Positions 4,767 through 22,604 of a stretch of 64,000 nt of DNA are shown here, in pieces (the first letter of the stretch is position 1; each line of letters begins with the position of its first letter). Origin of the DNA: an uncultured Bacteroidales bacterium. Lineage in GTDB: Bacteria; Bacteroidota; Bacteroidia; Bacteroidales; Paludibacteraceae. The notes under the pieces were generated by a model. The model did not search any database. It saw only the letters and a program-made list of their open reading frames with translations, and was not told where the DNA came from. The stretch covers positions 65,983-129,982 of the forward strand of contig CACZFM010000011.1 in assembly GCA_902780495.1 (NCBI GenBank), written 5' to 3'. Position numbers and translations under genes: made by a program.

Positions 4767-4796
4767 AGTTGTAAGGGGTGTTAAGTGGGTTTGTAT

Positions 4797-5744: not shown

Positions 5745-5753
5745 TGTGTGTGT

Positions 5754-6752
5754 TTATTTCCCGTTTTCGATGATATCGGTCAGTACATCTTTGATGTCCA
5801 GTCCGGCAGCGCGTACCTGTTGCGGAATGAACGATGTGGCAGTCATTCCGGGTGTGGTGTTCACCTCCAGCAGGTTGATATCCACATCGCTTGAGTTGTG
5901 GTCAGGCTCTTGACCGGCTTTCTTGGGCGTCAGAATATAGTCCACACGGATGATACCGTTGCAACCTAATATATCATACAGCCTAAGGGTCAGGGCTTGC
6001 ACTTTGTCACGTATCTCATCGGGGATGCGGGCCGGCGTTATTTCTTGCACTTGCCCGTTGTACTTGGCATCATAGTCGAAGAACTCGTTCTCGCTCACCA
6101 CTTCCGTCACAGGGAATGCCACTTCGTTCTTGCTTGTCTTATAGACGCCGCACGTCACTTCGGTGCCGTTCATAAATGCCTCGCAAATCACCTCATTGCC
6201 TTCTTTGAATGCCAGTTGTATGGCGGGCATGATGGCTTCGCGTGTCTTTACTTTGGTGCAACCGAAACTGCTGCCGCCCACATTGCTCTTGATGAAGCAG
6301 GGCAGGCCTACTGTGGCAATAATGCGGTCTTCGATATCCGTTTGGCTCCAGTGTTCTTCGGTGCCCGCGCCGCCTTGCACCATTGTCCCGTTGTCACGCA
6401 ATAGGATGGAGCGCGCAATGCGATAGCCGAAGTTCTGCAGGTAATGGTTACATGCAAACTTATTGAACGTCATCGATGCAGGCAGCACTCCGCAGCAACT
6501 ATATGGAATGTGCATCATGTCCAGATAGCCTTGCAACAGACCGTTCTCACCGGGCGTACCGTGAATGGTGATATACGCATAGTCATAGTCGCGGAGGCGG
6601 CTCAGAGTGTCTATGTCGGCTCCTTGCAGTTCCACGATGGTTACATCATATTTCTCCTTGTCCATAAAGGAGAGGATGCCTTGTGCGCTGCGCAGCGATA
6701 CATCGTGTTCCGAACTGTCACCGCCGGCTACGATTGCAATCTTGCGTTTCAT
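5754..6752 (-). CDS. ddl: D-alanine--D-alanine ligase
   Basis: KIAIVAGGDSSEHDVSLRSA N-terminus, ATP-grasp body and LLEVNTTPGMT C-terminal motif. Confidence 0.9.
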   Translation of the reverse strand: MKRKIAIVAGGDSSEHDVSLRSAQGILSFMDKEKYDVTIVELQGADIDTLSRLRDYDYAYITIHGTPGENGLLQGYLDMMHIPYSCCGVLPASMTFNKFACNHYLQNFGYRIARSILLRDNGTMVQGGAGTEEHWSQTDIEDRIIATVGLPCFIKSNVGGSSFGCTKVKTREAIMPAIQLAFKEGNEVICEAFMNGTEVTCGVYKTSKNEVAFPVTEVVSENEFFDYDAKYNGQVQEITPARIPDEIRDKVQALTLRLYDILGCNGIIRVDYILTPKKAGQEPDHNSSDVDINLLEVNTTPGMTATSFIPQQVRAAGLDIKDVLTDIIENGK

Positions 6753-6785
6753 ACGTCTTGGGGTTTAATGGGTTGTTTATTCGGG

Positions 6786-8564
6786 TTAGATGCCGAACGC
6801 TTTCTTTATCTCCGGCATACGGTTTTCTGCTTCCGCTGTGGCGCGCTCGTAGTCTGCGGGCGAAGTCATCGTAGCAGGTATCTCGAAGTAGTATTTGATT
6901 TTCGGCTCTGTGCCTGATGGACGCACGCTGGCTTTGATGCCGCCTTCCGTGAAGTATTGCAGCACATTGGATGTGGCGCCCAGGGCCATGTCTATCTTGC
7001 TCTCCACCCATTTGCCGTCTTTCAGGTCGCGGCGGACAAGGGTCTTATAGTCTTTTGTGCAGATTACTTTCTCGCCTGCTATCTCGGTCAAGGGCTGTTG
7101 GCGGTAGTTGGTCATCATCTGTGCTATCTCTTCGGCACCTGTTTTGCCGGGGCGAACCACGTTGATGGACACTTCACGCTGGAAGCCGTACTCCATGTAG
7201 ATATTCATCAAGTACTGGTACAGACTCATACCATGGTCTTTCGCGTATGCGGCTATTTCGCAGATGAGGCAGATGGCAGATGGCGAACATTTGTCACGCA
7301 CTTTGTCGTAAGCCAGGAAACCGAAACTCTCTTCTCCTCCACCGATGTATTTGCGGTCTTTCTCCCACATCCGAATACGGTTTGCAATCCACTTGAAACC
7401 GGTGTATTCATCGGTCAGCGTCACGCCTTGGCGGTCGGCAATACGGCGGATTACTTCGCTGGTTACGATGGTCTTCACCAGATACATGTCGGGAGTCATC
7501 TTGCCCAGTGCTTTCATGTTGTTGATGATGTAGTAGCAGTACATCATGCAAGTCTGATTACCGTTGATGATGGTCCATTCGCCTTTGTCGTTACGTGCCA
7601 CGATAGCGATACGGTCGGCATCGGGGTCGCTGGCGATGACCAAATCGGCATTCAGTTTGGTGCCCAGCGCCATACCCATGGTCATGGCTTCCGAGTTTTC
7701 GGGATTGGGGCTTTTTACGGTCGGGAAATTGCCGTCAATCACCATCTGTTCGGGCACTACATGGATGTTCTGGAATCCCCATGAACGCAGGCACATCGGG
7801 ATGATTTGTCGTCCTGTGCCGTGGAGCGGGGTATAAACGATGTTCAGGTCTTTCTGGTTCAGGATGGACTGTTGGTCTATCATCACGCTTTTTACGGCCA
7901 TCATGTAGTTGTAGTCCATCTCACCGCCGATTATCTCTATCAGGTCTTTGTCACCGCCGCGTTTCACATCGCGCATCTGCACTTTGTTCACTTCGTCAAT
8001 GATACCTTGGTCATGCGGTTGCAGCACTTGTGAACCGTCTTCCCAGTAGGCCTTGTAGCCGTTGTATTCTTTGGGGTTGTGCGAAGCGGTCACGTTCACG
8101 CCGCCTTGGCATTTCAAGTCGCGGATGGCGAAACTTACTTCCGGTGTCGGGCGCAGGCTCTCGAACAGATATACTTTGATGCCGTTGGCAGCGAACACAT
8201 CTGCCACGGTCTCTGCGAACAATCGTCCGTTGTTACGGCAGTCGTGGCATACCACAACGCTTGGGCGTCCGCCTTTCTCCAGTGTCTCAAAACCGCCTTC
8301 GCGGGCTATTTTGTTCAGGTAGTTGGCATATCCTTGTGTGGCTTGGGCTACGATGTATTTGTTCATGCGGTTGGTGCCCGGACCCATGATACCGCGCAGA
8401 CCGCCTGTACCGAACTCCAGCGTGCGGTAGAACGAGTCTATCAACTCACTCTTATCTTCTGCGTCCAGCATCTGCTGAACAGCCGTACGTGTCTCTTCGT
8501 CAAACTCTTTACCTGTCCATACTTTCGCCGTGGCGATAATTTGTTTCAACTCTTCGTTTTCCAT
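6786..8564 (-). CDS. phosphoglucomutase / phosphomannomutase family protein
   Basis: GTGGLRG and the TASHNPKEYNGYK active-site serine loop. 592 aa. Confidence 0.9.
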   Translation of the reverse strand: MENEELKQIIATAKVWTGKEFDEETRTAVQQMLDAEDKSELIDSFYRTLEFGTGGLRGIMGPGTNRMNKYIVAQATQGYANYLNKIAREGGFETLEKGGRPSVVVCHDCRNNGRLFAETVADVFAANGIKVYLFESLRPTPEVSFAIRDLKCQGGVNVTASHNPKEYNGYKAYWEDGSQVLQPHDQGIIDEVNKVQMRDVKRGGDKDLIEIIGGEMDYNYMMAVKSVMIDQQSILNQKDLNIVYTPLHGTGRQIIPMCLRSWGFQNIHVVPEQMVIDGNFPTVKSPNPENSEAMTMGMALGTKLNADLVIASDPDADRIAIVARNDKGEWTIINGNQTCMMYCYYIINNMKALGKMTPDMYLVKTIVTSEVIRRIADRQGVTLTDEYTGFKWIANRIRMWEKDRKYIGGGEESFGFLAYDKVRDKCSPSAICLICEIAAYAKDHGMSLYQYLMNIYMEYGFQREVSINVVRPGKTGAEEIAQMMTNYRQQPLTEIAGEKVICTKDYKTLVRRDLKDGKWVESKIDMALGATSNVLQYFTEGGIKASVRPSGTEPKIKYYFEIPATMTSPADYERATAEAENRMPEIKKAFGI

Positions 8565-10811: not shown

Positions 10812-10842
10812 TTGCATAATTCAAAAAAAAGCACTACCTTTG
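10812..10842 (+). promoter_or_regulatory. Bacteroidetes-type promoter (TTG, 20 nt, TAccTTTG)
   Basis: ttgcataattcaaaaaaaagcactacctttg lies 30 nt upstream of the ATG at 10872. Confidence 0.65.
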
Positions 10843-10871
10843 CAGCGGATTTTTCAAAACATAGAAACGGT

Positions 10872-12059
10872 ATGCTCGAGAGTTTTTACGTAACACATGC
10901 TAATCTTGTCGCCAACCTGGAAGTTCCCATTCGTCGGAAACTGATGGACGATGTGGATTGGAATGACCGTCTTATCGCTATTAAAGGCGGACGTGGGGTC
11001 GGGAAGACTGACTTCCTCTTGGATTATGCCAGGCACTTGCGGGACACTTTGCCCGAATCCGAACAACGTTCGGTGCTGTATATCAACCTGAACAACTTCT
11101 ATTTCACCGAACATTCGCTCTATGAGTTTGCCGGTGAGTTTGTGGCTGCCGGTGGACGAACGCTGTTGCTGGACCAGACATTCAAATATGAAAACTGGTC
11201 GAAAGAGTTGAGCAATTGTTATTTCCGTTACACCTCTTTGCACATCGTTTTTTCCGCATCTCCGCTGATGAAACTGAAAGAGGGCAACTCGGACATCGGA
11301 CATATAGTCAAAGTATATAACTTCCGCGGTTATTCGTTCCGTGAATACCTAAACCTGAAGACCAAAGCCAATCTGCCGTTCTATAGTCTGGACGATATCC
11401 TGCAAAATCACGAACAGATAGCCAGGTCGGTCTGCACGCATGTCAAGCCGTTGTGGTATTTCCCCGATTATCTGAAGCAGGGCTACTATCCCTATCGCGA
11501 AGTGAGTCGCGATTTTTCGGAGACACTCCTCAAAACCATGAATATGATGCTTGAGGTGGATGTGCTGCTCAACAAACCGATGGATGTCAGCTATCTGGGA
11601 AAAATGCGCCAGTTGCTCTATCGCCTGATGCTGGAGGTGCCTTGTTCGCTTAATATCACCGAACTGGCAACATCCATCAACACCTCGCGTGCAACCATAA
11701 TGAACTATATAAAGAATCTCAAGGATGCCCGTCTGCTCAATTTGTTGTACGCGGACGGAAAAGAGTATCCGATGAAACCCTCCAAAGTCTATATGCAGAA
11801 TCCCAATCTGTGTTATGCGCAGACTACGCGTCCTGTGGACCAACAGGCTATTGCGGAAACATTCTTCTACTCGGCACTGCATGGCTCGGAGAAAATCAAC
11901 GACTCGGAGAACTCCACCTTCCTTGTCAATCATACCATCCGAATGGATGTCTGTGCCACTTCTCCCAAGACGGAAGTGTTCCGTTACACCGCAGTAGCAG
12001 ACATTGAGAGAGGAGAGGATAAACTCATACCCCTTTGGCTGTTCGGATTCCTTTACTGA
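10872..12059 (+). CDS. AAA-family ATPase (COG1373-like)
   Basis: Walker A IKGGRGVGKT. Start set to the ATG at 10872, because the promoter box lies inside the longer ORF. Confidence 0.7.
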   Translation: MLESFYVTHANLVANLEVPIRRKLMDDVDWNDRLIAIKGGRGVGKTDFLLDYARHLRDTLPESEQRSVLYINLNNFYFTEHSLYEFAGEFVAAGGRTLLLDQTFKYENWSKELSNCYFRYTSLHIVFSASPLMKLKEGNSDIGHIVKVYNFRGYSFREYLNLKTKANLPFYSLDDILQNHEQIARSVCTHVKPLWYFPDYLKQGYYPYREVSRDFSETLLKTMNMMLEVDVLLNKPMDVSYLGKMRQLLYRLMLEVPCSLNITELATSINTSRATIMNYIKNLKDARLLNLLYADGKEYPMKPSKVYMQNPNLCYAQTTRPVDQQAIAETFFYSALHGSEKINDSENSTFLVNHTIRMDVCATSPKTEVFRYTAVADIERGEDKLIPLWLFGFLY

Positions 12060-12089: not shown

Positions 12090-15000
12090 ATGCAAAACAA
12101 GAAATTTATCACATGTGATGGTAACGCGGCGGCGGCACATATCGCCTATATGTTTACCGAAGTGGCTGCAATCTATCCCATCACGCCGTCTTCGCCTATG
12201 GCAGAGAACGTAGACGAATGGGCTGCCGGAGGCAGAAAGAACATGTTCGGTGAAACCGTTCTGGTGCAAGAAATGCAATCGGAGGCCGGTGCTGCCGGTG
12301 CCGTACACGGTTCGCTCTCGGCAGGTGCGCTCACCACTACTTTCACAGCCTCACAAGGCCTGTTGCTGATGATTCCGAACATGTATAAGATTGCAGGAGA
12401 ATTGCTTCCTACCGTCTTTCATGTATCGGCACGTACGCTGGCCAGCCATGTGCTCTGTATCTTCGGTGACCATCAGGATGTGATGGCATGTCGGCAAACC
12501 GGATTTGCCATGCTGGCGGAAGGTTCCGTACAGGAAGTAATGGATTTGTCGGGTGTGGCACATCTTTCCACCATCAAGACCCGCGTACCGTTCCTCAATT
12601 TCTTTGACGGTTTCCGCACATCGCATGAGTATCAGAAGATAGAGGCTATTGATATGGAAGACCTTCGTCCGTTGGTGGATATGGAGGCTTTGCAAGCGTT
12701 CCGCAATCGCGCTATGTCGCCTATGCACCCTGACACACGCGGACTGAACGAGAATCCCGATGTGTTCTTCACACACCGTGAGGCCTCTAACCGTTATTAC
12801 GATGCTGTGGCAGACGTGGTGGCCGATTATATGGATAAAATCAGTGCTATTACCGGACGCAAATATCGTCCCTTCTCCTATTACGGAGCAGCCGATGCCG
12901 AGAATATCATCATCGCTATGGGATCGGTCAGCGAGTGCTTGAAAGAGGTCATTGACCACGAAGCCGCAAAAGGACACAAACTGGGTATGATCAATGTTCA
13001 TCTCTACCGTCCTTTCAGCCTGAAATATCTGGAAGAGGCACTGCCCAAGACCGTCAAACGCATCTGCGTCCTCGACCGCACCAAAGAACCCGGTGCCAAT
13101 GGCGAACCGCTCTATCTGGATGTAAAAGCCGCTTTGGACGAGATGGGACGTCAGGACTTGCTCGTTATAGGCGGACGCTATGGCTTGGGTAGTAACGATA
13201 CGACACCCGCACAGATGTTGGCCGTTTATGAGAACCTCGCCCTGCCTATGCCGAAAAACCATTTCACGGTCGGTATCAATGACGATGTAACCTTCCTGAG
13301 CCTGCCCGTAGGAGAAGAAATAGCCATGGGCGGAAAGGGTATGTTCCAGGCCAAATTCTACGGACTGGGTGCTGACGGTACGGTTGGTGCCAATAAGAAC
13401 TCGGTGAAAATCATCGGTGACACTACCGACAAATATTGTCAGGCTTACTTCTCGTACGACTCGAAGAAATCCGGCGGTTTCACCTGCTCGCACTTGCGTT
13501 TTGGTGATGAACCCATTCGTTCCACCTATCTGGTGACAACGCCTAACTTCGTGGCTTGCCACGTACAAGCATACCTCCACATGTATGATGTCACACGCGG
13601 ACTGCAAGATAATGGCACTTTCCTGCTCAATACCATTTGGAATGGCGAAGAGTTGCGTCGCAATCTGCCGGACGGAATCAAGAAATACTTTGCGGATCAC
13701 CATATCAATGTCTATTACATCAACGCAACGAAGATTGCGCAGGAGATTGGACTCGGTAACCGTACCAACACCATTCTGCAATCGGCTTTCTTCCGCATCA
13801 CAGGTGTTATCCCTGTAGAGAAAGCGGTGGAAGAGATGAAACACTTCATCGACAAATCCTACGGCAAGAAGGGTGAAGACGTGGTGAAGAAAAACTATGC
13901 AGCCGTTGACCGCGGCGGTGAGTATCAGAAACTGGATATTGACCCCGCATGGAGCAATCTCACCGTTACCGATGCCCCGTTGGGAGTGCAGGCGGGCGAC
14001 CCCGATTTCATTAAGAACCTGGTACGTCCCATCAACGCGCAGAACGGCGACCTGCTGCCTGTTTCCGCTTTTATGGGTATTGAAGACGGCGTTTGGCAGT
14101 CCGGTACCAGTAAGTTCGAGAAACGTGGCGTAAGTGCTTTTGTGCCCGTTTGGGAAGCAGACAACTGTATAGAGTGTAATAAGTGTGCTTATGTATGTCC
14201 TCACGCTTGCATCCGACCCTTCGTTATGGATGAGCAAGAGGTGAAAGGCCTCAACGGCAAGACACGCGAGATGAAAGCACCTACTGCCATGAAGGGTATG
14301 CATTTCCGTATGCAGGTAGGCGTTATGGATTGCCTTGGCTGCGGCAACTGTGTGGATGTTTGTCCGGGTAACCCGAAAACAGGCAAAGCCCTTAAGATGG
14401 TTGATTTGGAAAGCCAACTGGCAGAAGCGGACAACTGGACATGGTGCGTAGAGAATGTGAAATCGAAACAAGACCTTGTGGACATCCGTTCCAATGTGAA
14501 GAACTCACAGTTTGCAACGCCGCTCTTTGAGTTCTCCGGTGCTTGCTCCGGTTGTGGCGAAACGCCTTATCTGAAACTTATCAGCCAGTTGTTTGGCGAC
14601 CGTGAAATAGTGGGTAACGCAACAGGTTGCACCTCCATCTATTCGGCTGCCGTTCCTTCTACGCCTTACACCAAGAATGAGAAGGGCTGTGGACCTACTT
14701 GGTCTAATTCGCTCTTCGAGGACTTCTGTGAGTTTGCTCTGGGTATGCAGATTGCGCACAAGAAAATGCAGGCGCGTATCTATGCACTCATGGAGAAAGG
14801 CCTCACATGCGACTGTTGCTCCGATGAGCTGAAAGCCATGTTCCGCGAATGGATGGAGCACCATACCGATGCTGACACCACCAAACGTCTCTACGAACCC
14901 CTTGTGGCGGCAATGGAGGCGTGCGGATGCGATACCTGCAAAGCCATTCTTGCTTGCAAAGACCACCTCGTTAAACGCTCGCAATGGGCGGTTGGCGGAG

Positions 15001-15647
15001 ACGGCGCAAGTTATGACATCGGTTACGGAGGACTTGACCACGTCATCGCTTCCGGCGAAGATGTCAATATCCTTGTCTTGGATACGGAGGTTTATTCCAA
15101 CACCGGTGGTCAGGCGTCCAAATCAACTCCGCTTGGCGCTATCGCCAAGTTCGCTGCGGCCGGAAAGCGCGTACGCAAGAAAGACCTTGGCATGATTGCC
15201 ACCACCTATGGCTATGTTTACGTAGCGCAGGTGGCTATGGGCGCAGACCAAGCGCAGACCTTGAAGGCTATCCGTGAGGCAGAGGCATATCCCGGACCGT
15301 CTCTTATCATCGCTTACGCACCGTGTATCAACCACGGACTGAAAGCCGGTATGGGTAAGAGTCAGGAGGAAGAGGCCAAAGCCGTTGAGTGCGGTTACTG
15401 GCATCTGTGGCGTTACAACCCGATGCTGGAGGCAGAAGGCAAGAATCCGTTCTCGCTTGACTCCAAAGAGCCTGACTGGTCTAAATTCAACGACTTCCTG
15501 AAAGGAGAGGTACGCTTTGCATCGGTAATGAAACAGTATCCGACGGAAGCTGCCGACCTGTTCAAGGCTGCCGAGGATAATGCGCATTGGCGTTATCGTT
15601 CCTATCAGCGTATGCTCTCCACCGATTGGAGCAAGGCCGAGGAGTAA
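12090..15647 (+). CDS. nifJ: pyruvate:ferredoxin (flavodoxin) oxidoreductase
   Basis: 1185 aa. Two ferredoxin-type clusters, CIECNKCAYVCPHAC and CLGCGNCVDVCP. TPP-binding GGDGASYDIGYGGLDH. Confidence 0.95.
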   Translation: MQNKKFITCDGNAAAAHIAYMFTEVAAIYPITPSSPMAENVDEWAAGGRKNMFGETVLVQEMQSEAGAAGAVHGSLSAGALTTTFTASQGLLLMIPNMYKIAGELLPTVFHVSARTLASHVLCIFGDHQDVMACRQTGFAMLAEGSVQEVMDLSGVAHLSTIKTRVPFLNFFDGFRTSHEYQKIEAIDMEDLRPLVDMEALQAFRNRAMSPMHPDTRGLNENPDVFFTHREASNRYYDAVADVVADYMDKISAITGRKYRPFSYYGAADAENIIIAMGSVSECLKEVIDHEAAKGHKLGMINVHLYRPFSLKYLEEALPKTVKRICVLDRTKEPGANGEPLYLDVKAALDEMGRQDLLVIGGRYGLGSNDTTPAQMLAVYENLALPMPKNHFTVGINDDVTFLSLPVGEEIAMGGKGMFQAKFYGLGADGTVGANKNSVKIIGDTTDKYCQAYFSYDSKKSGGFTCSHLRFGDEPIRSTYLVTTPNFVACHVQAYLHMYDVTRGLQDNGTFLLNTIWNGEELRRNLPDGIKKYFADHHINVYYINATKIAQEIGLGNRTNTILQSAFFRITGVIPVEKAVEEMKHFIDKSYGKKGEDVVKKNYAAVDRGGEYQKLDIDPAWSNLTVTDAPLGVQAGDPDFIKNLVRPINAQNGDLLPVSAFMGIEDGVWQSGTSKFEKRGVSAFVPVWEADNCIECNKCAYVCPHACIRPFVMDEQEVKGLNGKTREMKAPTAMKGMHFRMQVGVMDCLGCGNCVDVCPGNPKTGKALKMVDLESQLAEADNWTWCVENVKSKQDLVDIRSNVKNSQFATPLFEFSGACSGCGETPYLKLISQLFGDREIVGNATGCTSIYSAAVPSTPYTKNEKGCGPTWSNSLFEDFCEFALGMQIAHKKMQARIYALMEKGLTCDCCSDELKAMFREWMEHHTDADTTKRLYEPLVAAMEACGCDTCKAILACKDHLVKRSQWAVGGDGASYDIGYGGLDHVIASGEDVNILVLDTEVYSNTGGQASKSTPLGAIAKFAAAGKRVRKKDLGMIATTYGYVYVAQVAMGADQAQTLKAIREAEAYPGPSLIIAYAPCINHGLKAGMGKSQEEEAKAVECGYWHLWRYNPMLEAEGKNPFSLDSKEPDWSKFNDFLKGEVRFASVMKQYPTEAADLFKAAEDNAHWRYRSYQRMLSTDWSKAEE

Positions 15648-15650
15648 TCT

Positions 15651-17696
15651 ATGTTTCACTTCAAAAAGAAAAAACGCTCCTACGCAGGGCTTTGGATTAT
15701 TCTGGTTGCCGCCATTGTGCTGGAACTGACAGCCTGCATCCAATACGTGTTCAGCCGTGCCGGTATACGCGCAGAGGCCGAGCAACGCGCCCGTAGCGAA
15801 CTATGTAGGGCAGAACTGGAAATAAACGTCGTAACCGCCCAAATGGAAGCCGCTGTGCAGATGCTTGCCATGCTTGCAGAAAAACACGTGGACAGCCCGG
15901 ATTCCATAGCGGAGGCCACCAGAGCATTGGTCAGCACCCTGAAGAGCGTGCGCAGTGCGGGGATTGCCTATACGGCGGATTATTTCCCGCAGCAGGGACA
16001 TTGGTTCGAAGTCTGCAGCAGCCGTGAGACCATGGACGGCAAAACCATCGTCTATACGCGCCAAATCGGCAACCAAAATCACGACTATTTGCAGACCGAG
16101 TGGTTTGCCAACGGTATGACGATTGACAGTTGCTGGTGGAGTGAACCGTATTACGACGATTCGGGTGCCCGTGCGATGGTGGTGAGTTGCTCTTATCCCA
16201 TTCGAAACGCGAAAGGGGAGAAAGTGGCAGTCGCTTTGGTGGATTTGTCACTGGAGTACCTGAAGACTGTTTCCGACTATCTGCAGGTGTACAAGGACAG
16301 TTACTATTCCATCGTCTCCAGCAAAGGACTGGATATTGTGGCTCATCCGGATACTATTGAGGGCAAGAAATACCATATCTTCGACGAGGAGATAGATGCA
16401 ACAGGATGGCATATATCGGTCATCATTCCCGATGATGTCATTTTTGCGGACCTGAAACGTATCAGTTTGATTGTCATGCTGCTGATGCTGGCAGGTCTGG
16501 CCATTCTGGCTTTCATCGTCTATCGGGCAGGTCGGGATATGCTTCGTCTGGTGGATTCCACGGCAGCGAACGAGCGGATGGAAAACGAACTGAACATAGC
16601 CCGTTCCATTCAGATGGCTATGGTGCCCAAAGTCTTTCCTCCGTTCCCGGACCGCTTGGATTTGGATATCTACGGCATGGTCAATCCGGCTAAAGAGGTT
16701 GGGGGAGATTTGTATGATTTCTACCTGCGTACCGATAAGTTATTTTTCTGCATAGGTGATGTGAGTGGCAAGGGCGTTCCTGCCGCGTTGGTGATGGCGA
16801 CTATACGTTCCCTGTTCCGAAGTATTGCCGCGCAAGAGGAAGGACCGGCTGCCATTATGGGCAGAATGAATGACACGCTTTCCGAGCAAAACGGACAGAA
16901 CATGTTTGTCACCCTTTTCCTTGGCATACTGGATATGCATACGGGCAGGTTGGATTACTGCAACGCCGGCCATAATGCGCCTGTGCTGCAGGGTAGGAAA
17001 CTGGAGGTGGTGCCCAATTTGCCACTTGGCATCATGCAAGGATATGTGTATCAGGCGCAAACCACACAATTGGAATACAATCAGTTGCTCTTCCTCTACA
17101 CCGATGGTCTGACCGAAGCGGAGAATGACAGCCAGCACCAATATGGCGAAGAACGGATGTTGAACGTGCTGCAGGGTATTGCCAACAACCGTCCGCGCAA
17201 TGTGGTGGAAACCTTGCAAGCCGATGTGGAAGCGTTCGTGGGCGATGCGCAACAGAGTGATGACCTGACGATGATGGCCATTCGCTACCAAATTCCGGCC
17301 ATCGTGTTCCGCAATGACATACAGCAGATTCCCACTTTGTCGGAATGGATTGAAGGGCTGAATTTGCCCAAAGAACTGGATATGCCGGTCAATCTGGCAT
17401 TGGAAGAAGCCGTGAGCAATGTTATGTTGTACGCTTATCCGGAGAACCGAAACGGACAAGTGCTGGTGGAATTTGCTCGAACGAGCGACCAGGCAGGTGA
17501 AAAAATCGTCTTCACCATTTCGGATACCGGCATTCCGTTCGACCCGACCCAAAAAGAAGAAGTGGATATCACGCTATCTTCCGAACAGCGTGCCATTGGC
17601 GGACTGGGCATACACTTGGTGCGCAAACTGATGGATGAAATGGAATACAAACGCGAAGGGAATAAAAACGTATTGACACTGATAAAGAATTTATAA
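15651..17696 (+). CDS. membrane sensor protein: extracytoplasmic domain + SpoIIE/PP2C phosphatase + C-terminal RsbW-like GHKL ATPase
   Basis: Two TM segments (LWIILVAAIVLELTACIQYVF and ISLIVMLLMLAGLAILAFIVY). PP2C motifs GDVSGKGVPAALVMA and YTDGLTEA. C-terminal ...EEAVSNVMLYAY...ISDTGIPFDP...GGLGIHLVRKLMDE. Confidence 0.85.
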   Translation: MFHFKKKKRSYAGLWIILVAAIVLELTACIQYVFSRAGIRAEAEQRARSELCRAELEINVVTAQMEAAVQMLAMLAEKHVDSPDSIAEATRALVSTLKSVRSAGIAYTADYFPQQGHWFEVCSSRETMDGKTIVYTRQIGNQNHDYLQTEWFANGMTIDSCWWSEPYYDDSGARAMVVSCSYPIRNAKGEKVAVALVDLSLEYLKTVSDYLQVYKDSYYSIVSSKGLDIVAHPDTIEGKKYHIFDEEIDATGWHISVIIPDDVIFADLKRISLIVMLLMLAGLAILAFIVYRAGRDMLRLVDSTAANERMENELNIARSIQMAMVPKVFPPFPDRLDLDIYGMVNPAKEVGGDLYDFYLRTDKLFFCIGDVSGKGVPAALVMATIRSLFRSIAAQEEGPAAIMGRMNDTLSEQNGQNMFVTLFLGILDMHTGRLDYCNAGHNAPVLQGRKLEVVPNLPLGIMQGYVYQAQTTQLEYNQLLFLYTDGLTEAENDSQHQYGEERMLNVLQGIANNRPRNVVETLQADVEAFVGDAQQSDDLTMMAIRYQIPAIVFRNDIQQIPTLSEWIEGLNLPKELDMPVNLALEEAVSNVMLYAYPENRNGQVLVEFARTSDQAGEKIVFTISDTGIPFDPTQKEEVDITLSSEQRAIGGLGIHLVRKLMDEMEYKREGNKNVLTLIKNL

Positions 17697-17721
17697 CCAA
17701 TCATATAAAAGAGCAGATAAG

Positions 17722-18027
17722 ATGATGATAACGAAAATCGAGGAAAAGGAGAATCGGTTGATTGCTTTTTTCGCAGGTCGTTTGGATACGGCAGCTGCGG
17801 TGCAGACAACGGAAGATGTCAAACCGCTTTTGCAGGTTTCCGACAAGGAGATTGTTCTGGATTGTACGGATCTGGCATACATATCTTCATCGGGACTCCG
17901 TATCTTCCTTTCCATCCGTAAAGAGGCGGCCACAAAGGGAAACAGGGTCATTGTGCGCAATATCAATGCCGATATCCGGCAAGTGTTTATGATGACAGGT
18001 TTCATCAGTTTGTTTGAAATCGAATAA
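17722..18027 (+). CDS. STAS-domain anti-sigma-factor-antagonist-like protein (RsbV/SpoIIAA type)
   Basis: 101 aa, with DCTDLAYISSSGLRIFLSIRK carrying the conserved phospho-acceptor Ser context. Confidence 0.85.
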   Translation: MMITKIEEKENRLIAFFAGRLDTAAAVQTTEDVKPLLQVSDKEIVLDCTDLAYISSSGLRIFLSIRKEAATKGNRVIVRNINADIRQVFMMTGFISLFEIE

Positions 18028-18040
18028 TTTTTCCGGCCCT

Positions 18041-19132
18041 ATGGATTTACACTGCCAATTGATATTGGACGAGTATGATGCCCGTCTTGCGGAGTTTCAA
18101 CGCCTGGAACAAATCGTACAGAAGACGCTGAAAGAGGCACTGGAACGCAATGCGCTGATGGTTACCGCTGTCACCACGCGCATCAAAACAAGGGATAGCT
18201 TGACCAACAAGTTGGAACTGAAGGGCGGAAAATATCGCTCTATGAACGATATAACCGACATTCTTGGCGCGCGCATCATTACCTTCTACACTGATGATGT
18301 GGACCGCATCGCAGCAATGGCGGAACAGATGTTCGAGATTGATTGGGCGAACTCGGTGGACAAACGTCGTCTCCATGATTTGGATAGTTTTGGTTATAAC
18401 TCGCTTCACTATATCTGCCGCTTGCCCAAAAATATCATTGATGTGCCCGAATGTCCGCAGTTGAACCAAATACGGTTTGAATTGCAGTTGCGTACCACCT
18501 TGCAACATGCTTGGGCGTCCATCAACCACGACACCGGTTACAAATCGGACATAGAGATTCCGCGTGAGTATATGCGCCAGATGAACCGCCTTTCCGGTAT
18601 TCTTGAGATGGCGGACGATGAGTTCAGCCGTATTCGTATCGAACTGAACGATTATCGGAGACGGGTGCATAATCTGGTCAAGAACGGTGAGTTGGACAGC
18701 GTGCAACTGGATGGTGATACTTTCCGAAGTTATCTGCTCGCACGGCCGTTCGATTCTTTGAATAAGCGCATTGCCGCCATCAATCAGGCGGAAATTCAGG
18801 AAGTGTCGCTCCTGCCCTATCTGCGTGTTTTCAAGGCGTTTGGCTGCCTCACGTTGGGCGATGTGGACCGTTTGAGAAGAAAGTATGAGGATGAGGCTTA
18901 TTATCTGTCGCGGCACCAATTGGGCAATACCGATATTGATATCCTTTCATCATCTGTAGGAATACAGAATATCTGCATCGTCTGCATCTTGAAGCAGGGA
19001 GGTGGAAGAATAGGACTTGTACGCCTTTTCAATGCGTTGAACGGGCAGAGTCCTCAAAATGAATTGCTGGCGGACATGATGTACAATCAGGCTGCAAGTA
19101 TGCCTTTTATGAATAACGGAAACAAGTTGTAA
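18041..19132 (+). CDS. RelA/SpoT-domain protein (small alarmone synthetase type) with an uncharacterised C-terminal extension of about 180 aa
   Basis: DILGARIITFYTDDV, YNSLHYICRL and ELQLRTTLQHAWASINHD are synthetase-fold motifs. ATG at 18041 is preferred over the TTG at 18014. Confidence 0.85.
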   Translation: MDLHCQLILDEYDARLAEFQRLEQIVQKTLKEALERNALMVTAVTTRIKTRDSLTNKLELKGGKYRSMNDITDILGARIITFYTDDVDRIAAMAEQMFEIDWANSVDKRRLHDLDSFGYNSLHYICRLPKNIIDVPECPQLNQIRFELQLRTTLQHAWASINHDTGYKSDIEIPREYMRQMNRLSGILEMADDEFSRIRIELNDYRRRVHNLVKNGELDSVQLDGDTFRSYLLARPFDSLNKRIAAINQAEIQEVSLLPYLRVFKAFGCLTLGDVDRLRRKYEDEAYYLSRHQLGNTDIDILSSSVGIQNICIVCILKQGGGRIGLVRLFNALNGQSPQNELLADMMYNQAASMPFMNNGNKL

Positions 19133-19140
19133 GAAATACT

Positions 19141-19980
19141 ATGTCACCTGTTCTGATTGATTTGAATGAATACGAACGTACCGGCGAAGGGGCGAACGGT
19201 GCAAGTTATAACCACAAAACTGACAAGGCGGTGATGCTGAAAATGTATCTTCGCAATTTTGAGTCTGCCCAAAAAGAGTTGGAGGTCGCGAAAAAAGTGT
19301 ATGAGGCCGGTATCCCGACGCCCGAACCAGGAGACCTCGTGACGGATGGCGAACGGATGGGAATCCGTTTCCGGAGGATAGAAGGCAAGAAATCTTATTC
19401 GAGGGCTTGTGGTGACAATCCGGAACGGACGGAAGAGTATGCCCGTGAGTTTGCGCAACTCTGCAAACGCCTGCACGCTACTCATGTGGATACAACCAAA
19501 TTCGAAAATGTCAAGAACCGCCTCTATGCCATGTTGAAGGCCAATCCTTTTTTCTCGGACGAAGAGAAACGCAAAATACATGACTTCATCGCCAATGCTC
19601 CGGATGCCGATACGGCTATCCATGGCGATTTGCAGTATAGCAACGGTATCTTTGTGGAGAAAGACGGAAAGCGCACGCCGTATTTCATTGACCTCGGCGA
19701 TTTCTGCTACGGCTATCCTATGTTCGACATCGGAATGGTTTACCTCTGCTGCTGCTTGAACGAAGAGGCGTGGACGTTGGAACAATACCACATGTCTAAT
19801 GCTACGGCCGCACGCTTCTGGGATGCTTTTGCTGCCGAGTATTTCGGACCGGATGCGGATATGCAGCAGGTGATGAAAGAGGTGAAAATCTATGCGGGAC
19901 TCAAAACGCTTATCATTGAGCGGGATACGCATCGGCCGATGCCGCAGTTCCGTGCAATGTTGGAAGGTACTGTTTATTAA
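19141..19980 (+). CDS. APH/choline-kinase-like phosphotransferase family protein
   Basis: Brenner-type catalytic loop HGDLQYSN, followed by FIDLGDF. Confidence 0.8.
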   Translation: MSPVLIDLNEYERTGEGANGASYNHKTDKAVMLKMYLRNFESAQKELEVAKKVYEAGIPTPEPGDLVTDGERMGIRFRRIEGKKSYSRACGDNPERTEEYAREFAQLCKRLHATHVDTTKFENVKNRLYAMLKANPFFSDEEKRKIHDFIANAPDADTAIHGDLQYSNGIFVEKDGKRTPYFIDLGDFCYGYPMFDIGMVYLCCCLNEEAWTLEQYHMSNATAARFWDAFAAEYFGPDADMQQVMKEVKIYAGLKTLIIERDTHRPMPQFRAMLEGTVY

Positions 19981-19995
19981 AACGGAGTAGGGAAG

Positions 19996-20577
19996 ATGGG
20001 AAACAAGTATATGGATAGCACCCTGCTGGACAGGGCAATCGTTTTTGCCGTGGAGGCACATCGTAACACGGAAAGACGCGGAAAGGGATTCCCTTATATC
20101 GTGCATCCGATGGAAGCCGTGGAAATTGTGGCAACCATCACCAATGACCAGGAATTGTTGGCGGCGGCCATCTTGCATGATACCATTGAGGATACGGATG
20201 TCGCGTATGAGCAATTGAAACGCGAGTTCGGTGACAGGATTGCTGATATCGTGTATGCCGAGAGCGACCGCTTTGTAGAAGGTGTCAGCGAGGAGAATAG
20301 TTGGCATGCGCGCAAGCAGGCGGCTATCACTCGTTTGGCGGAAGCACCGCATGATGCCAAAGTCGTGGCTATGGGCGATAAACTCAGCAACATGCGGGCC
20401 ATCGCAAGGGATTATAAAATGAAAGGGGATGCTTTGTGGCAGATTTTCCATGTCACCGACAAAGAATCTCATGCCTGGCACTATCGCGGATTGGCGGACT
20501 CGTTGGCGGAACTGAAGGACACGTTTGCCTATCAGGAGTTCGTCGCCCTGATAGAGCAGGTCTTTGGCAATAGATAG
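19996..20577 (+). CDS. stand-alone HD-domain (p)ppGpp-hydrolase-like protein (small alarmone hydrolase type)
   Basis: YIVHPMEAV...AAILHDTIEDTD is the RelA/SpoT hydrolase HD signature. 193 aa. Confidence 0.85.
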   Translation: MGNKYMDSTLLDRAIVFAVEAHRNTERRGKGFPYIVHPMEAVEIVATITNDQELLAAAILHDTIEDTDVAYEQLKREFGDRIADIVYAESDRFVEGVSEENSWHARKQAAITRLAEAPHDAKVVAMGDKLSNMRAIARDYKMKGDALWQIFHVTDKESHAWHYRGLADSLAELKDTFAYQEFVALIEQVFGNR

Positions 20578-20594
20578 TGGCATATTTTCAATAC

Positions 20595-20660
20595 GTCAAA
20601 GATCACAATAAACAGCGGAGCAATTCCTTTCGCGACTATCACGGGATCATCTTACGAGAA
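20595..20660. repeat. modular intergenic repeat, copy B (M0 gtcaaagatcaca, M1, M3-like)
   Basis: Contains cacaataaacagcgg and cgcgactatcacgggatcatcttacgagaa. Confidence 0.7.
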
Positions 20661-20692
20661 CACCCTAAAGATAAAATCCATTTAGTAGTGCA

Positions 20693-20730
20693 AAAAACGG
20701 AGGCTACCAAATTTTCGCCTCCGGTTTTGG
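20693..20730 (+). terminator. intrinsic terminator candidate after the alarmone module
   Basis: Stem cggaggc (20698-20704) pairs with gcctccg (20717-20723). It is flanked by an A-run upstream and by gttttgg downstream. Confidence 0.6.
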
Positions 20731-20977
20731 TATCAGGATTCCATTTTTGATAAATCATATCCTGCGTAGGTGCTCAAATCCATTATTTCAGTGATGTGGA
20801 AAAAGTCTCGTTTATGCCGTGCGTGTCGGTTTTTGTGCCCATATCGGCGGTGGCCATGATAAATAAAAATTTTAATTCAAAAGAATGCCTCGCCACGCCA
20901 CGCCTTTTAGAGCTTTCGTTGTTTTGCCACGGTGCTTATATATAGGCAAGGCATGGCTGCTTTTTTTTTCTTTATTA

Positions 20978-21068
20978 ATTTTCTTTTGGTTCTTTTCTTT
21001 TATCAGCTTTCTTTTTTGTGTGCTGTGCGGCACTCTAAACGATCTGCTGCGCTGTATGCTTTTTTCGC
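20978..21068. repeat. polypyrimidine-rich repeat, copy 2 of 2
   Basis: attttcttttggttcttttcttttatc...gcggcactctaaacgatctgctgc aligns with 9010-9101. Confidence 0.65.
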
Positions 21069-21128
21069 TCGCTTTTCTTCATCCTTTTTTGCAGATTCCC
21101 TCTAATTTAACAAAAAACTACAAATAAA

Positions 21129-21160
21129 TTTGCGCACTCCAAAATTTTTTACTACCTTTG
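21129..21160 (+). promoter_or_regulatory. Bacteroidetes-type promoter (TTTG, 20 nt, TAccTTTG) driving leader L1
   Basis: tttgcgcactccaaaattttttactacctttg. Confidence 0.7.
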
Positions 21161-21300
21161 CAGTCGGAAATGAAACCTATCGTCCTCTCTCACGGACGTT
21201 AAACGTGAGGGCGCTGGTGCTGACAGCGTAAAAAAGCGGTGACATACTGAATAAAAAGAAGCGTTTGCTTTACTCTTGAAACTGAAAACTTAGGAACTTT
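21161..21300 (+). promoter_or_regulatory. conserved 5' leader RNA motif, copy L1 (hairpins 21181-21198 and 21212-21228, then GTAAAAAAG)
   Basis: Aligns with 54045-54305. The first hairpin, cgtcc/ggacg, is identical in both copies. The second hairpin is cgctg/cagcg here and cactg/cagtg in L2. Confidence 0.6.
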
Positions 21301-21481
21301 TCAATACAATGGTAAGGGCAATGCAATATGTTTCCACGATAGTGGCGTGGAAATCTATCTGCATACTTACCATTACAAGGTTTCCTAAGACCGTCAGTTT
21401 CGGGTGTGTGGCATAGAGTCCCACGCTTTTATTATGCAACCAATCCTTGCCGGGGCTACAAGGAGAAATAAAAAAGATGAA

Positions 21482-22159
21482 ATGAGACGAATTTTCTTTA
21501 TTGTGATGTGTACATTATGTACCACTTGTATCGATGCACAGATTGAGGTTACTAAATTTTTAGGCATTCCTGTTGATGGATCTAAACAACAAATGATTTC
21601 ACAACTTAAGGCAAAAGGATACAAATATGACCCCACATTGGATTATTTGACGGGTGAGTTTAATGGAAGAGATGTTAACATACATATTGCGACCAATAAC
21701 AATAAAGTTTATCGCATAGTGCTTGAAGATGCTTTATACTCTTCAGAAACTGATATAAAAATTAGATTTAATACCCTTTGTCGCCAATTCAAAAACAATG
21801 AAAAGTATTTGAAGCCTTCTTTGAATGAGTATGAAATATCAGAAACAGAAGATATATCATTTGAAATGAGTTGTCATAATAAACGCTATGAAGCGTCATA
21901 TTATCAAGTTACAAATCAATTGGATTCTGTAACAATGACGAATAAACTACAGGAATTTCTTTTCTCCAAGTATGGAAAAGATTTGTCAAATCTGACAGAG
22001 GAACAAAAAATGGACGTTTTAGCATCCTCGTTACTTTTTTATTTGAACCTATATGAGGATAACTCTGTGTGGTTTATGATAAATAGACGCTACGGAAAAT
22101 TTGGAATTCTAATGTATTATGATAATAATCATAATCGTGCTAATGGTGAAGATTTGTAA
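21482..22159 (+). CDS. hypothetical secreted protein or lipoprotein (AT-rich gene)
   Basis: Signal-peptide-like MRRIFFIVMCTLCTTCIDAQ. I recognise no motif. Start moved to the ATG at 21482. Confidence 0.6.
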   Translation: MRRIFFIVMCTLCTTCIDAQIEVTKFLGIPVDGSKQQMISQLKAKGYKYDPTLDYLTGEFNGRDVNIHIATNNNKVYRIVLEDALYSSETDIKIRFNTLCRQFKNNEKYLKPSLNEYEISETEDISFEMSCHNKRYEASYYQVTNQLDSVTMTNKLQEFLFSKYGKDLSNLTEEQKMDVLASSLLFYLNLYEDNSVWFMINRRYGKFGILMYYDNNHNRANGEDL

Positions 22160-22173
22160 TTTGTAATATCACA

Positions 22174-22572
22174 ATGAAAGACAAAAAATCATTTTGGGGC
22201 GGAGTCGCCGTTGGAGTCGTCGGAACAATTCTATTACTTTTTGTGTTGGCCATTGGTCATGAGAAGAATGATGATCTTGTTGGTGCTACTATGTTTGACC
22301 AACCAGGAGAAGTAATTAACGAGCAATCGTTTAAAGTGCTACAGGTTGTTAATGAAAACTCGGCATTAGTATATGGAAAAAAGAATGCTCGCGATAAATA
22401 CTATTCTGGAACATTGTACATGATTCGAAGCAATGAACAAGAATACTATTATGACGAGGAAATAATCCATGTTCCATCAGATAAAATCATCCGTCAAGTA
22501 GGAATTTATCAATATACAAATAAGCTCAACACACAAAAAACGGTACCCATTATAAAGATAATGGATCGATAA
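22174..22572 (+). CDS. hypothetical membrane-anchored protein (AT-rich gene)
   Basis: N-terminal TM segment FWGGVAVGVVGTILLLFVLAIG. 132 aa. Confidence 0.55.
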   Translation: MKDKKSFWGGVAVGVVGTILLLFVLAIGHEKNDDLVGATMFDQPGEVINEQSFKVLQVVNENSALVYGKKNARDKYYSGTLYMIRSNEQEYYYDEEIIHVPSDKIIRQVGIYQYTNKLNTQKTVPIIKIMDR

Positions 22573-22604
22573 TTTGCAAGAACTACAATCCCTAATTTGG
22601 ATAA

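Follow-up and report, generated by a model that had tools for sequence, protein, structure and literature searches.

Organization of the locus

A stretch of 64,000 nucleotides (nt) from an uncultured Bacteroidales bacterium of the family Paludibacteraceae (GenBank assembly GCA_902780495.1, contig CACZFM010000011.1, positions 65,983 to 129,982 of the forward strand), hereafter called the window, carries a compact block of five genes, g1 to g5, in which a membrane sensor with phosphatase and kinase domains and a STAS protein are joined to a predicted small alarmone synthetase (SAS), an APH-fold kinase and a predicted small alarmone hydrolase (SAH). An original prediction made from the sequence alone had read this block as a partner-switching module whose output may be the synthesis of a nucleotide second messenger. 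The features of the locus, with gene coordinates taken from the table of open reading frames (ORFs), are as follows.

12090-15647, upstream of g1: nifJ, encoding a full pyruvate:ferredoxin oxidoreductase (PFOR) by Pfam
15651-17696, + strand: g1, 681 residues
16734-17288, + strand: PP2C (SpoIIE) domain of g1 (PF07228, 169.8 bits, residues 362-546)
17337-17687, + strand: RsbW-like GHKL serine kinase domain of g1 (PF13581, 82.6 bits, residues 563-679)
17722-18027, + strand: g2, 101 residues
17887-17889, + strand: codon of the predicted phospho-serine S56 of g2, placed by alignment with SpoIIAA
18041-19132, + strand: g3, 363 residues
18041-18661, + strand: synthetase domain of g3, RelQ/RelP type, residues 1-207
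18662-19132, + strand: orphan domain at the C-terminus of g3 (residues 208-363, about 155 in length), made up largely of helices plus three short strands
19141-19980, + strand: g4, 279 residues
19996-20577, + strand: g5, 193 residues
20691-20729, + strand: hairpin resembling a terminator, between an A-tract and a U-tract, about 115 nt past the g5 stop codon

The five genes stand on the same strand, and the gaps from nifJ through g5 are 3, 25, 13, 8 and 15 nt, exactly as originally described; the earlier domain assignments also held in a profile search, in which every call lies above the Pfam threshold. The ORF of g3 opens at a TTG codon at 18014, and the ATG at 18041 ('MDLH...') is the start in orthologues. 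A sigma-factor gene, the absence of which had already been pointed out, was found neither between 10 and 26 kb of the window by the ORF table and Pfam nor in the annotated neighbourhoods of relatives (locus L095 among those examined). A sigma factor encoded elsewhere in the genome is nevertheless a possible target.

Transcription signals were sought by several scans. The block had been read as one unit, and internal terminators do not exceed chance, as the consensus scan found 8 of them inside the block compared to 9.5 ± 3.1 expected. The hairpin at 20691-20729 folds as RNA with -15.9 kcal/mol (z = -2.76), only 1 of 200 shuffles being equally stable, and it probably marks the 3′ end of the transcription unit; it was missed by the consensus scan because its loop is 12 nt long. 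Counts in a sigma-70 consensus scan were at or under the shuffled expectation. The Bacteroidetes -7 motif TAnnTTTG, the count of which over the window is no higher than chance, is absent from the + strand between 10842 and 18385, and therefore no canonical promoter lies immediately upstream of g1 or nifJ. Rfam and tRNA scans of the region from 9 to 27 kb gave no matches, and the GC content of the cluster is like that of the surrounding genome.

Sensor and STAS proteins

In Pfam searches, g1 matches MCP-like_PDC_1/dCache (1e-12), SpoIIE (9e-50) and HATPase_c_2 (3e-23). It is laid out as a first transmembrane segment (residues ~13-34), a periplasmic domain of PDC/dCache type (~35-267), a second transmembrane segment (~268-292), the PP2C/SpoIIE domain (362-546) and the RsbW-like GHKL serine kinase domain (563-679). 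The periplasmic part is put at about 233 residues, rather than the 250 or so estimated at first, because the two transmembrane segments, as placed by a hydropathy scan, lie at these positions and the N-terminus is rich in K/R. NCBIfam models for RsbW, SpoIIAB and SiaA gave partial matches, the SiaA match being confined to the PP2C part and scoring 55.3 bits where the cutoff is 700, and no receiver domain was found in g1 by Pfam. Both enzymatic domains keep their motifs. Across 83 sequences, the aspartate motifs GGDxxD, GDVSGKG, TDG and DD of the PP2C domain and the metal-binding residues D353, D356, D370, D485 and D537-D538 are invariant, as are the N, G1 and G2 boxes of the kinase (E585...N590, D625-x-G627 and G650-G-L-G653).

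The g2 protein is a single-domain STAS protein (PF01740, 1e-15), and it scores 62.2 bits against the anti-sigma-antagonist superfamily model TIGR00377, for which the cutoff is 53.45. Its 'YISSSGL' aligns with 'FMDSSGL' of SpoIIAA, so that S56 of g2 corresponds to S58 of SpoIIAA, the known phosphosite of that protein; residues S55-S57, G58 and L59 are invariant in 86 sequences. Collectively, the components of an RsbU/V/W-type switch are all present, namely a PP2C phosphatase, an RsbW-like kinase and a STAS protein with a phosphorylatable serine, with no sigma factor nearby. With these motifs intact, g1 and g2 are probably competent as a phosphatase/kinase/STAS switch.

A paralogous pair of PDC-SpoIIE-HATPase_c_2 and STAS genes, 30% and 34% identical to g1 and g2, was observed in one related contig (L006:11433-17068; L016 is the same contig), 0.7 kb downstream of the cluster and directly upstream of a gene for a nonribosomal peptide synthetase (NRPS) of at least 2368 residues. 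This arrangement suggests that the sensor/STAS pair is a portable input module serving other outputs.

Alarmone synthetase and its C-terminal domain

The N-terminal part of g3 matches RelA_SpoT (PF04607, 1e-17, residues 46-170), and phmmer matches to RelQ/RelP structures range from 1.7e-15 (3l9d) to 1e-8. When the predicted structure of g3 was searched with Foldseek, the best match was the RelQ/RelP structure 5dec with a TM-score of 0.73, CapRel and the long Rel enzymes ranking lower. The assignment to the synthetase fold, made earlier from the letters, is borne out at the level of single residues. In the alignment with 3l9d, 2be3 and 6fgk the catalytic residues are kept, the motifs R-x-K, D-x-x-G-x-R, G-Y-x-S-x-H and E-x-Q-x-R-T are all present, and R47, K49, D73, G76, R78, Y119, H123, E147, Q149 and R151 are invariant in 87 sequences. 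The protein scores 62.3 bits against the RelQ equivalog model NF053588, for which the cutoff is 320, and with 363 residues and an additional folded domain it falls outside the size of single-domain SAS proteins (~200-250 residues). The usual 'IEH' of RelA/SpoT proteins reads 'INH' in the clade of the window, where residue 162 (codon 18524-18526) is an asparagine; this is the case in 82 of 87 sequences, whereas a glutamate stands there in the sister clade described below, in the domain fusions and in RelQ.

Downstream of the synthetase domain, the part that had been left unassigned measures about 155 residues (208-363) instead of the earlier estimate of about 180, and it is conserved to the same degree as the catalytic domain. 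Predicted alone by AlphaFold2, it gives a mean predicted local distance difference test score (pLDDT) of 93.4 and a predicted TM-score (pTM) of 0.88. The pTM of full-length g3 is only 0.53, and the position of the C-terminal domain relative to the active site is therefore undefined in the model. Foldseek returned no significant match for the domain, the best E-values being 2.6 in the PDB and 3.7 among the viral structures of BFVD. A known fold, such as the CapRel antitoxin domain, STAS or a sigma-like fold, was accordingly rejected for this domain, since a model of pLDDT 93 found no match to any of them. The likeness to CapRel-type C-terminal regulatory domains that had been brought up in the original prediction is not upheld: CapRel (7ztb) aligns with g3 over the SAS domain only, and the full-length superposition has a root-mean-square deviation (rmsd) of 21.8 Å.

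The distribution of the C-terminal domain was examined with its last 159 residues as the query against 1.84 billion representative proteins, of which 94 clusters match, by length mostly fragments or proteins of about 350 residues. Ten of these clusters were scanned with Pfam, and RelA_SpoT was found in seven. The idea that the domain is a module shared with other proteins was dropped, as the full-length proteins scanned carry the synthetase and the rest are mostly short fragments. Two long repeat proteins (P0195 and P0205) gave weak partial matches to it. One protein of 422 residues (P0128) combines an Amidohydro_1-like N-terminal part with the last synthetase helix and the orphan domain; it is probably a chimeric assembly, a real fusion being the alternative. 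The 'DILSSSVG' of the C-terminal domain was also considered as a STAS-like phosphosite, given that it resembles 'YISSSGL' and follows a strand at the N-terminus of a helix. It is not conserved, and because the sister clade, with the cluster-bearing L095, has 'SEN' at this place and the fusions have 'AEN', it is not a general phosphosite.

Hydrolase, APH-fold kinase and a sixth gene

The last gene of the block, g5, encodes a stand-alone HD_4 domain (PF13328, 9e-18), and phmmer matches it to the SAH structures 7qoc (5e-23) and 7qoe (2e-21), to Lmo0812 (3e-17) and also to the hydrolase domains of long Rel enzymes. Residues H37, H61-D62, E65-D66 and D128...N132 are invariant in 76 sequences. By family and motifs, g5 is most readily taken as a small alarmone hydrolase.

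The g4 protein belongs to the APH family (PF01636, 4e-17) and matches TIGR02172, an uncharacterised APH-fold family, only marginally (230.3 bits, cutoff 228.2), its orthologue in L095 scoring 254.9 bits. Its K34, H161-G-D163...N168 and D184-x-x-D187 are invariant in 78 sequences. A single-sequence search found no solved relative, and the profile search for solved relatives gave only spurious matches to RecA repeats and sub-threshold matches to APH, NleH and MTR-kinase.

In 53 of 73 related loci, g5 is followed by a sixth gene, which encodes a Cys-phosphatase of the Y_phosphatase3 family (PF13350), for example L004:10598-11404. No Y_phosphatase3 gene occurs anywhere in the 64 kb of the window. 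The APH and Y_phosphatase3 genes are directly adjacent in both six-gene arrangements of the sister clade, and besides the kinase/PP2C and synthetase/hydrolase pairs they look like a third writer/eraser pair, acting on a nucleotide or a protein. The place that this gene takes in most relatives is occupied in the window by an AT-rich stretch immediately after g5 (20580-22600, GC 0.33-0.41 compared to 0.48-0.54 around it), in which two ORFs without a Pfam family are found (21404-22159, 251 residues; 22174-22572, 132 residues). This stretch could be foreign DNA that has replaced the sixth gene.

Conservation in close relatives

Relatives were collected by scanning one genome per GTDB species. A g3 relative was found in 204 species, and loci were counted from the best 80 by tblastn with the window proteins, the denominators being the loci with enough upstream or downstream sequence. 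Among the thousands of relatives of the g3 protein, the 120 best are without exception full-length, with identities of 70% or more; where a source name is given, it is that of a metagenome-assembled genome of Paludibacteraceae or Bacteroidales. The best 80 of the 204 species loci, hereafter clade A, all come from gut or rumen Bacteroidales, have 67-76% identity and keep the synteny.

Co-conservation of the five genes, on which the original prediction had staked its reading, proved to be strong. The order g1, g2, g3 is kept in 74 of 75 loci, and 67 of 75 contain both g4 and g5. In clade A the genes are separated by medians of 16.5, 2, 12 and 29 nt, with overlap in many pairs; the STAS and SAS genes in particular lie a median of 2 nt apart and frequently overlap. 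The annotated contigs of three relatives show the same five genes in the same order, and the flanks differ among them, comprising peptidases S66/M15 in one, IF2/NusA and the threonyl-tRNA synthetase gene (ThrRS) in another and GH53 in a third. The linkage is not due to chance, because it recurs in at least 80 species amid flanking genes that are unrelated. The five-gene architecture that had been proposed is thus real, although it is a reduced form: among the fully flanked loci, 46 of 69 have all six genes including Y_phosphatase3, and 14 of 69 have the five genes seen in the window. A minority of clade A loci lacks g4 or g5, and in two of them (L055 and L059) g5 and Y_phosphatase3 are kept and g4 is absent.

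Two irregular spacings were also observed. In L001, a complete restriction-modification gene of MmeI type (4614-7577, 987 residues) stands between g1 and the STAS gene; it is absent from the near-identical strains L002 and L003, and L011 has a g1-STAS gap of the same size. In one species, the gap between g3 and g4 is about 1 kb (L024:9071-10130), compared to about 12 nt elsewhere.

Sister clade, domain fusions and distant relatives

A search with the protein P0136 led to a sister clade of long synthetases, including Prevotella, that are 50-56% identical to g3. Its genes are arranged as follows.

P0277 (Prevotella) and P0256: solitary synthetase
P0271, L096: SAS-SAH pair
L095: SAS, g1, STAS, HD, APH, Y_phosphatase3
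L132, L136, L138 and L170: APH, Y_phosphatase3, HD, g1, STAS, SAS
Many loci: HD, g1, STAS, SAS, or g1, STAS, SAS
L104 and L107: APH, Y_phosphatase3, HD, SAS, with no sensor

Of 24 sister-clade loci with adequate flanks, g1 stands beside the synthetase in 14 and the synthetase is alone in 7.

The protein P0136 itself (521 residues) is a natural fusion in which an N-terminal HATPase_c_2 domain is followed by the synthetase and then by the C-terminal domain. The N-terminal domain of P0136 shares 44% identity (E 5e-31) with the last 132 residues of g1 (550-681), a segment that takes in the entire RsbW-like domain up to the C-terminus, and the N, G1 and G2 boxes are intact in the fusion. Two further fusions of this kind, P0215 and P0216, are 81-82% identical to P0136, and the three are distinct 90%-identity clusters. 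Besides the first NCBI contig, a second one and a JGI record contain the fusion, and it is therefore not an artefact of assembly. That the same families associate in three gene orders and that a domain fusion exists as well is classically taken to indicate functional coupling.

Long synthetases at a greater distance (26-40% identity across the whole protein) are encoded by solitary genes in other phylum-level contexts. At least seven distant relatives (33-44% identity) are on viral contigs of IMG/VR, and no close relative is among the matches listed there. The only one of the listed viral matches that spans both the C-terminal domain and the synthetase is L180:2106-3113 (UViG_2576861821_000001), which covers residues 11-359 with 33% identity.

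Proposed mechanism

On the basis of the gene content, the intact motifs and the comparative data, we consider that the cluster is probably a partner-switching operon in which the switch controls the synthetase, so that its output would be alarmone synthesis instead of the release of a sigma factor; the probability of this reading is put at roughly 0.6. Nucleotide-messenger synthesis as the output had been no more than suggested by the original prediction, and it gains strength from the three gene orders and from the fusion of the RsbW-like domain to the synthetase. The following scheme, with its protein-protein contacts, sign of regulation, ligand and product, is one that we infer.

The periplasmic PDC/Cache-type domain of g1, an inner-membrane protein whose architecture and motifs are plainly those of a sensor joined to a phosphatase and a kinase, would respond to a ligand outside the cytoplasm and bias the protein between its own RsbW-like serine kinase and its PP2C phosphatase, in a direction of control that the scheme leaves to either activity. 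The common target of the two activities would be S56 of the STAS protein g2, a step proposed because g2 is homologous to SpoIIAA/RsbV and the S56 site is invariant. The phosphorylation state of the STAS protein may then decide whether the RsbW-like domain or the STAS protein itself binds g3, and this binding would switch the synthesis of (p)ppGpp or a related 3′-pyrophosphorylated nucleotide on or off. As far as genomics can suggest, two versions of this step are conceivable. The canonical logic, in which the RsbW-like domain holds the synthetase and is displaced by the unphosphorylated STAS protein, is slightly favoured because the natural fusion joins exactly the RsbW-like domain to the synthetase. 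By analogy with SiaC/SiaD, the unphosphorylated STAS protein could instead activate the synthetase directly, and the median spacing of 2 nt between the STAS and SAS genes is equally compatible with such direct activation. The orphan C-terminal domain of g3 is likely to be the docking or regulatory surface for these contacts. The product would be degraded by g5, which has the family assignment and the motifs of a hydrolase and may thereby reset the signal. Finally, g4 and, in most genomes, Y_phosphatase3 could serve as a second writer/eraser pair next to the synthetase and hydrolase, acting on the nucleotide or on a protein of the cluster.

Several observations weigh against the proposal that the switch controls the synthetase. 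The synthetase occurs alone in Prevotella and other lineages, a simple SAS-SAH pair exists, APH, Y_phosphatase3, SAH and SAS are found together without g1 and g2 in L104 and L107, and the paralogous g1/STAS pair of L006 precedes an NRPS gene. As the modules are found apart, the sensor pair is portable and the synthetase is not strictly dependent on it. Furthermore, no PP2C or STAS gene occurs near the fusion genes. The interactions are predicted from genomics, and the arrangement of the domains in the full-length g3 model is uncertain (pTM 0.53). The partner-switch model also leaves the co-conservation of the APH-like kinase and the Cys-phosphatase unexplained.

Alternative explanations

Among the rivals, the one that survives best holds that the genes are independent neighbours. 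According to this explanation, g1 and g2 act on an unlinked target, g3 and g5 are a self-contained alarmone pair and g4, with or without Y_phosphatase3, is a third unit, and the adjacency reflects co-expression at most. It accommodates the modules that occur alone (the SAS-SAH pair of L096, the sensor-less L104 and L107, and the sensor/STAS pair before the NRPS gene of L006) as well as the minority of clade A loci that lacks g4 or g5, and it has a parallel in the targets of SypE/SypA and of the Chlamydia Rsb proteins, which likewise are not encoded beside the switch (PMC8256260). It sits poorly, however, with the re-association of the same families in three gene orders and two clades, with the tight spacing and frequent overlap of the STAS and SAS genes, with the three protein clusters in which RsbW-like domain and synthetase form one polypeptide, and with a block that stays intact while its flanks vary. 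We regard it as unlikely.

A toxSAS-type toxin-antitoxin or anti-phage module, which the original prediction had offered as its alternative, is quite improbable. In such a module, g3 would arrest growth through overproduction of (pp)pApp or (p)ppGpp or through pyrophosphorylation of tRNA, it would be checked by its own C-terminal domain in the manner of CapRel and by g5 as a type IV antitoxin, and the other genes would be triggers or modulators. The adjacency of SAS and SAH does resemble FaRel with its ATfaRel SAH (PMC7229694), and the fused C-terminal domain brings g3 near to CapRel in length (7ztb, 344 residues); moreover, the SAS domain has a weak PADLOC match to the candidate PDC-S33 (3e-16), one distant relative (P0201) lies beside TIR/LRR genes, and the distant relatives on IMG/VR contigs could be counted on the same side. 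Against this stand the housekeeping flanks (such as IF2/NusA and ThrRS), the lack of integrase and transposase genes in the annotated loci L001-L006 and L095, and the occurrence in 204 species genomes of one lineage, with conserved synteny and identities of 67-76% in the best 80 loci. The GC content fits the surrounding genome. The SAS domain is nearest to the non-toxic RelQ/RelP rather than to CapRel, and the C-terminal domain, with its rmsd of 21.8 Å in the superposition, does not have a CapRel-like fold (pseudo-ZFD). In several lineages the synthetase has no hydrolase at all, five or six genes are present instead of the two or three of a toxin-antitoxin system, and close relatives are absent from viral contigs among the matches listed.

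A more ambitious extension of the favoured partner-switch reading appears improbable to the same degree. All six genes would make up a complete ligand-gated pathway with a messenger that is not simply (p)ppGpp, the switch gating the long SAS through its C-terminal domain, the APH kinase and Cys-phosphatase interconverting the product and the SAH destroying it. Were it true, the system would offer a new messenger chemistry together with the first post-translational input of an extracytoplasmic signal to a RelA/SpoT homologue (RSH) enzyme.

The least probable explanation, a pathway for a modified or new nucleotide messenger in which g3 uses a substrate other than GDP/GTP or makes (p)ppGpp that is interconverted by the APH-fold kinase and Y_phosphatase3, with g5 as the degrading enzyme and the switch as the on/off control, can draw on the three co-conserved antagonistic pairs (kinase/PP2C, SAS/SAH and APH/Cys-phosphatase, all six genes being present in 46 of 69 loci), on the adjacency of APH and Y_phosphatase3 in both sister-clade orders, on the uncharacterised APH subfamily of g4 with its intact catalytic residues and no solved relative found, and on the replacement of the 'IEH' glutamate by N162 in the clade of the window, yet it is very doubtful in view of an otherwise standard synthetase core of RelQ/RelP type, of APH-fold and Y_phosphatase3 proteins that could equally act on proteins, of loci in which g4 is absent while g5 and Y_phosphatase3 remain (L055 and L059), and of the absence of Y_phosphatase3 from the window.

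Flanking sequence

Between 10 and 26 kb of the window, the cluster is surrounded by genes for a HAD hydrolase, an AAA_14 ATPase, PFOR, two ORFans, MutY, HU and RNase E/G. The linkage to PFOR had been taken to suggest a redox or carbon-status input, and nifJ lies upstream of the cluster in 0 of 86 related loci. As this linkage is seen only in the present genome, such an input is left without comparative support. The AAA_14 ATPase gene (10812-12059) ends 30 nt before nifJ and has a weak, sub-threshold DUF4143 match. The same Pfam families (AAA_14/DUF4143) are found a few kb from the cluster in other loci (L001-L003:15125-16336; L003:2358-3563), and their proximity to the cluster may be a coincidence because the family seems to be common in these genomes. 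Long ORFs are also present on the - strand at 12351-14471 (706 residues), 19144-20583 (479 residues) and 18047-18919 (290 residues), facing nifJ and g3-g5, and most likely just shadow the coding strand.

Comparison with known systems

Small alarmone synthetases are controlled by transcription, by allosteric nucleotides or by RNA, and the long RSH enzymes respond to ribosomes, to acyl carrier protein and to a few binding partners. For RelQ and RelP in particular, control is exerted through transcription and through pppGpp or RNA as allosteric effectors, and they are not known to obey a partner switch. The RelQ/RelP enzymes of Firmicutes (5dec, 6fgk and 6ewz) match the N-terminal domain of g3 best, in sequence as well as in structure, and share its catalytic residues, whereas g3 differs from them in its extra orphan domain of about 155 residues and in falling below the RelQ equivalog cutoff. 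The toxSAS systems (FaRel-ATfaRel and CapRel; PMC7229694, 7ztb) share with the cluster an SAS beside an SAH, a fused C-terminal domain and, for CapRel, a similar length, but the cluster has five or six genes set among core chromosomal genes, its C-terminal domain has a fold unrelated to that of CapRel and its SAS domain is nearer to RelQ/RelP.

A full-text literature search found no published description of this architecture, of which the original prediction likewise knew none, and no paper that links SAS or (p)ppGpp synthesis to partner switching, STAS, PP2C or Paludibacteraceae. The 2011 survey of RSH proteins (Atkinson 2011) lists only Rel and RshB for Bacteroidia, and the main text of the 2020 survey (Jimmy et al. 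2020) mentions no such neighbourhood; the RSH classification comprises 30 SAS and 11 SAH subfamilies, and the g3 family may already be named as one of them in the datasets of the latter survey. What appears to be new is the wiring of a known signalling logic to known enzyme families, a C-terminal domain for which no structural relative could be detected, and a kinase/phosphatase pair that awaits explanation. The operon supplies a functional context for this orphan domain and for the TIGR02172 kinase family, and the system is widespread among rumen Bacteroidales that are abundant but uncultured and about whose stress physiology very little is known. Its components are small and soluble or can be truncated, which makes heterologous testing feasible.

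Compared to the RsbU/RsbV/RsbW and SpoIIE/SpoIIAA/SpoIIAB modules of Bacillus, the cluster has the same PP2C phosphatase, GHKL serine kinase and phospho-serine STAS protein with intact motifs. It differs in that a single membrane protein with a periplasmic PDC/Cache sensor unites kinase and phosphatase, and in that no sigma factor is nearby, the linked and, in one lineage, fused partner being an alarmone synthetase. In Chlamydia trachomatis, according to PMC8256260, a membrane-bound RsbU with a periplasmic sensor domain feeds the RsbU-RsbV1/2-RsbW partner switch, and the title of Soules et al. 2020, which is cited there, links the RsbU sensor to regulation of the tricarboxylic acid cycle. In that system, the kinase is a separate protein, the proposed target is the availability of the housekeeping sigma factor and no RSH enzymes are linked.

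The union of kinase and phosphatase in one protein that acts on a STAS protein has its counterpart in SypE of Vibrio fischeri, which is described in PMC8256260 as a dual RsbW-like kinase and PP2C phosphatase of the single-domain STAS protein SypA, the unphosphorylated SypA being active on a target that is not a sigma factor. In contrast to SypE, g1 has transmembrane segments and a periplasmic sensor, with no receiver domain found; SypE is presumably cytoplasmic with a central receiver domain. The candidate target of the STAS protein is here encoded next door, unlike that of SypA.

The closest functional analogy is the SiaABCD system of Pseudomonas aeruginosa, in which the phosphorylation state of a small switch protein, governed by a kinase and a membrane-bound PP2C phosphatase, controls a diguanylate cyclase (PMC8457831, PMC7647112). 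In that system too, a phosphorylation switch controls the synthetase of a nucleotide second messenger. The likeness is one of function only. SiaA and SiaB are separate proteins whereas g1 is a fusion, and SiaC, unlike g2, is not known to be an RsbV-type STAS protein. The output of SiaABCD is cyclic di-GMP (c-di-GMP) made by a diguanylate cyclase, and the present cluster has a RelA/SpoT-type synthetase and no GGDEF gene. None of the RsbU/V/W, SypE/SypA and SiaABCD systems involves an RSH enzyme. If the proposed control of the synthetase is true, a partner switch driven by an extracytoplasmic sensor would bring a new kind of input to stringent-type signalling, and the cluster would represent a further non-sigma output of the RsbU/V/W logic, parallel to that of SiaABCD for c-di-GMP.

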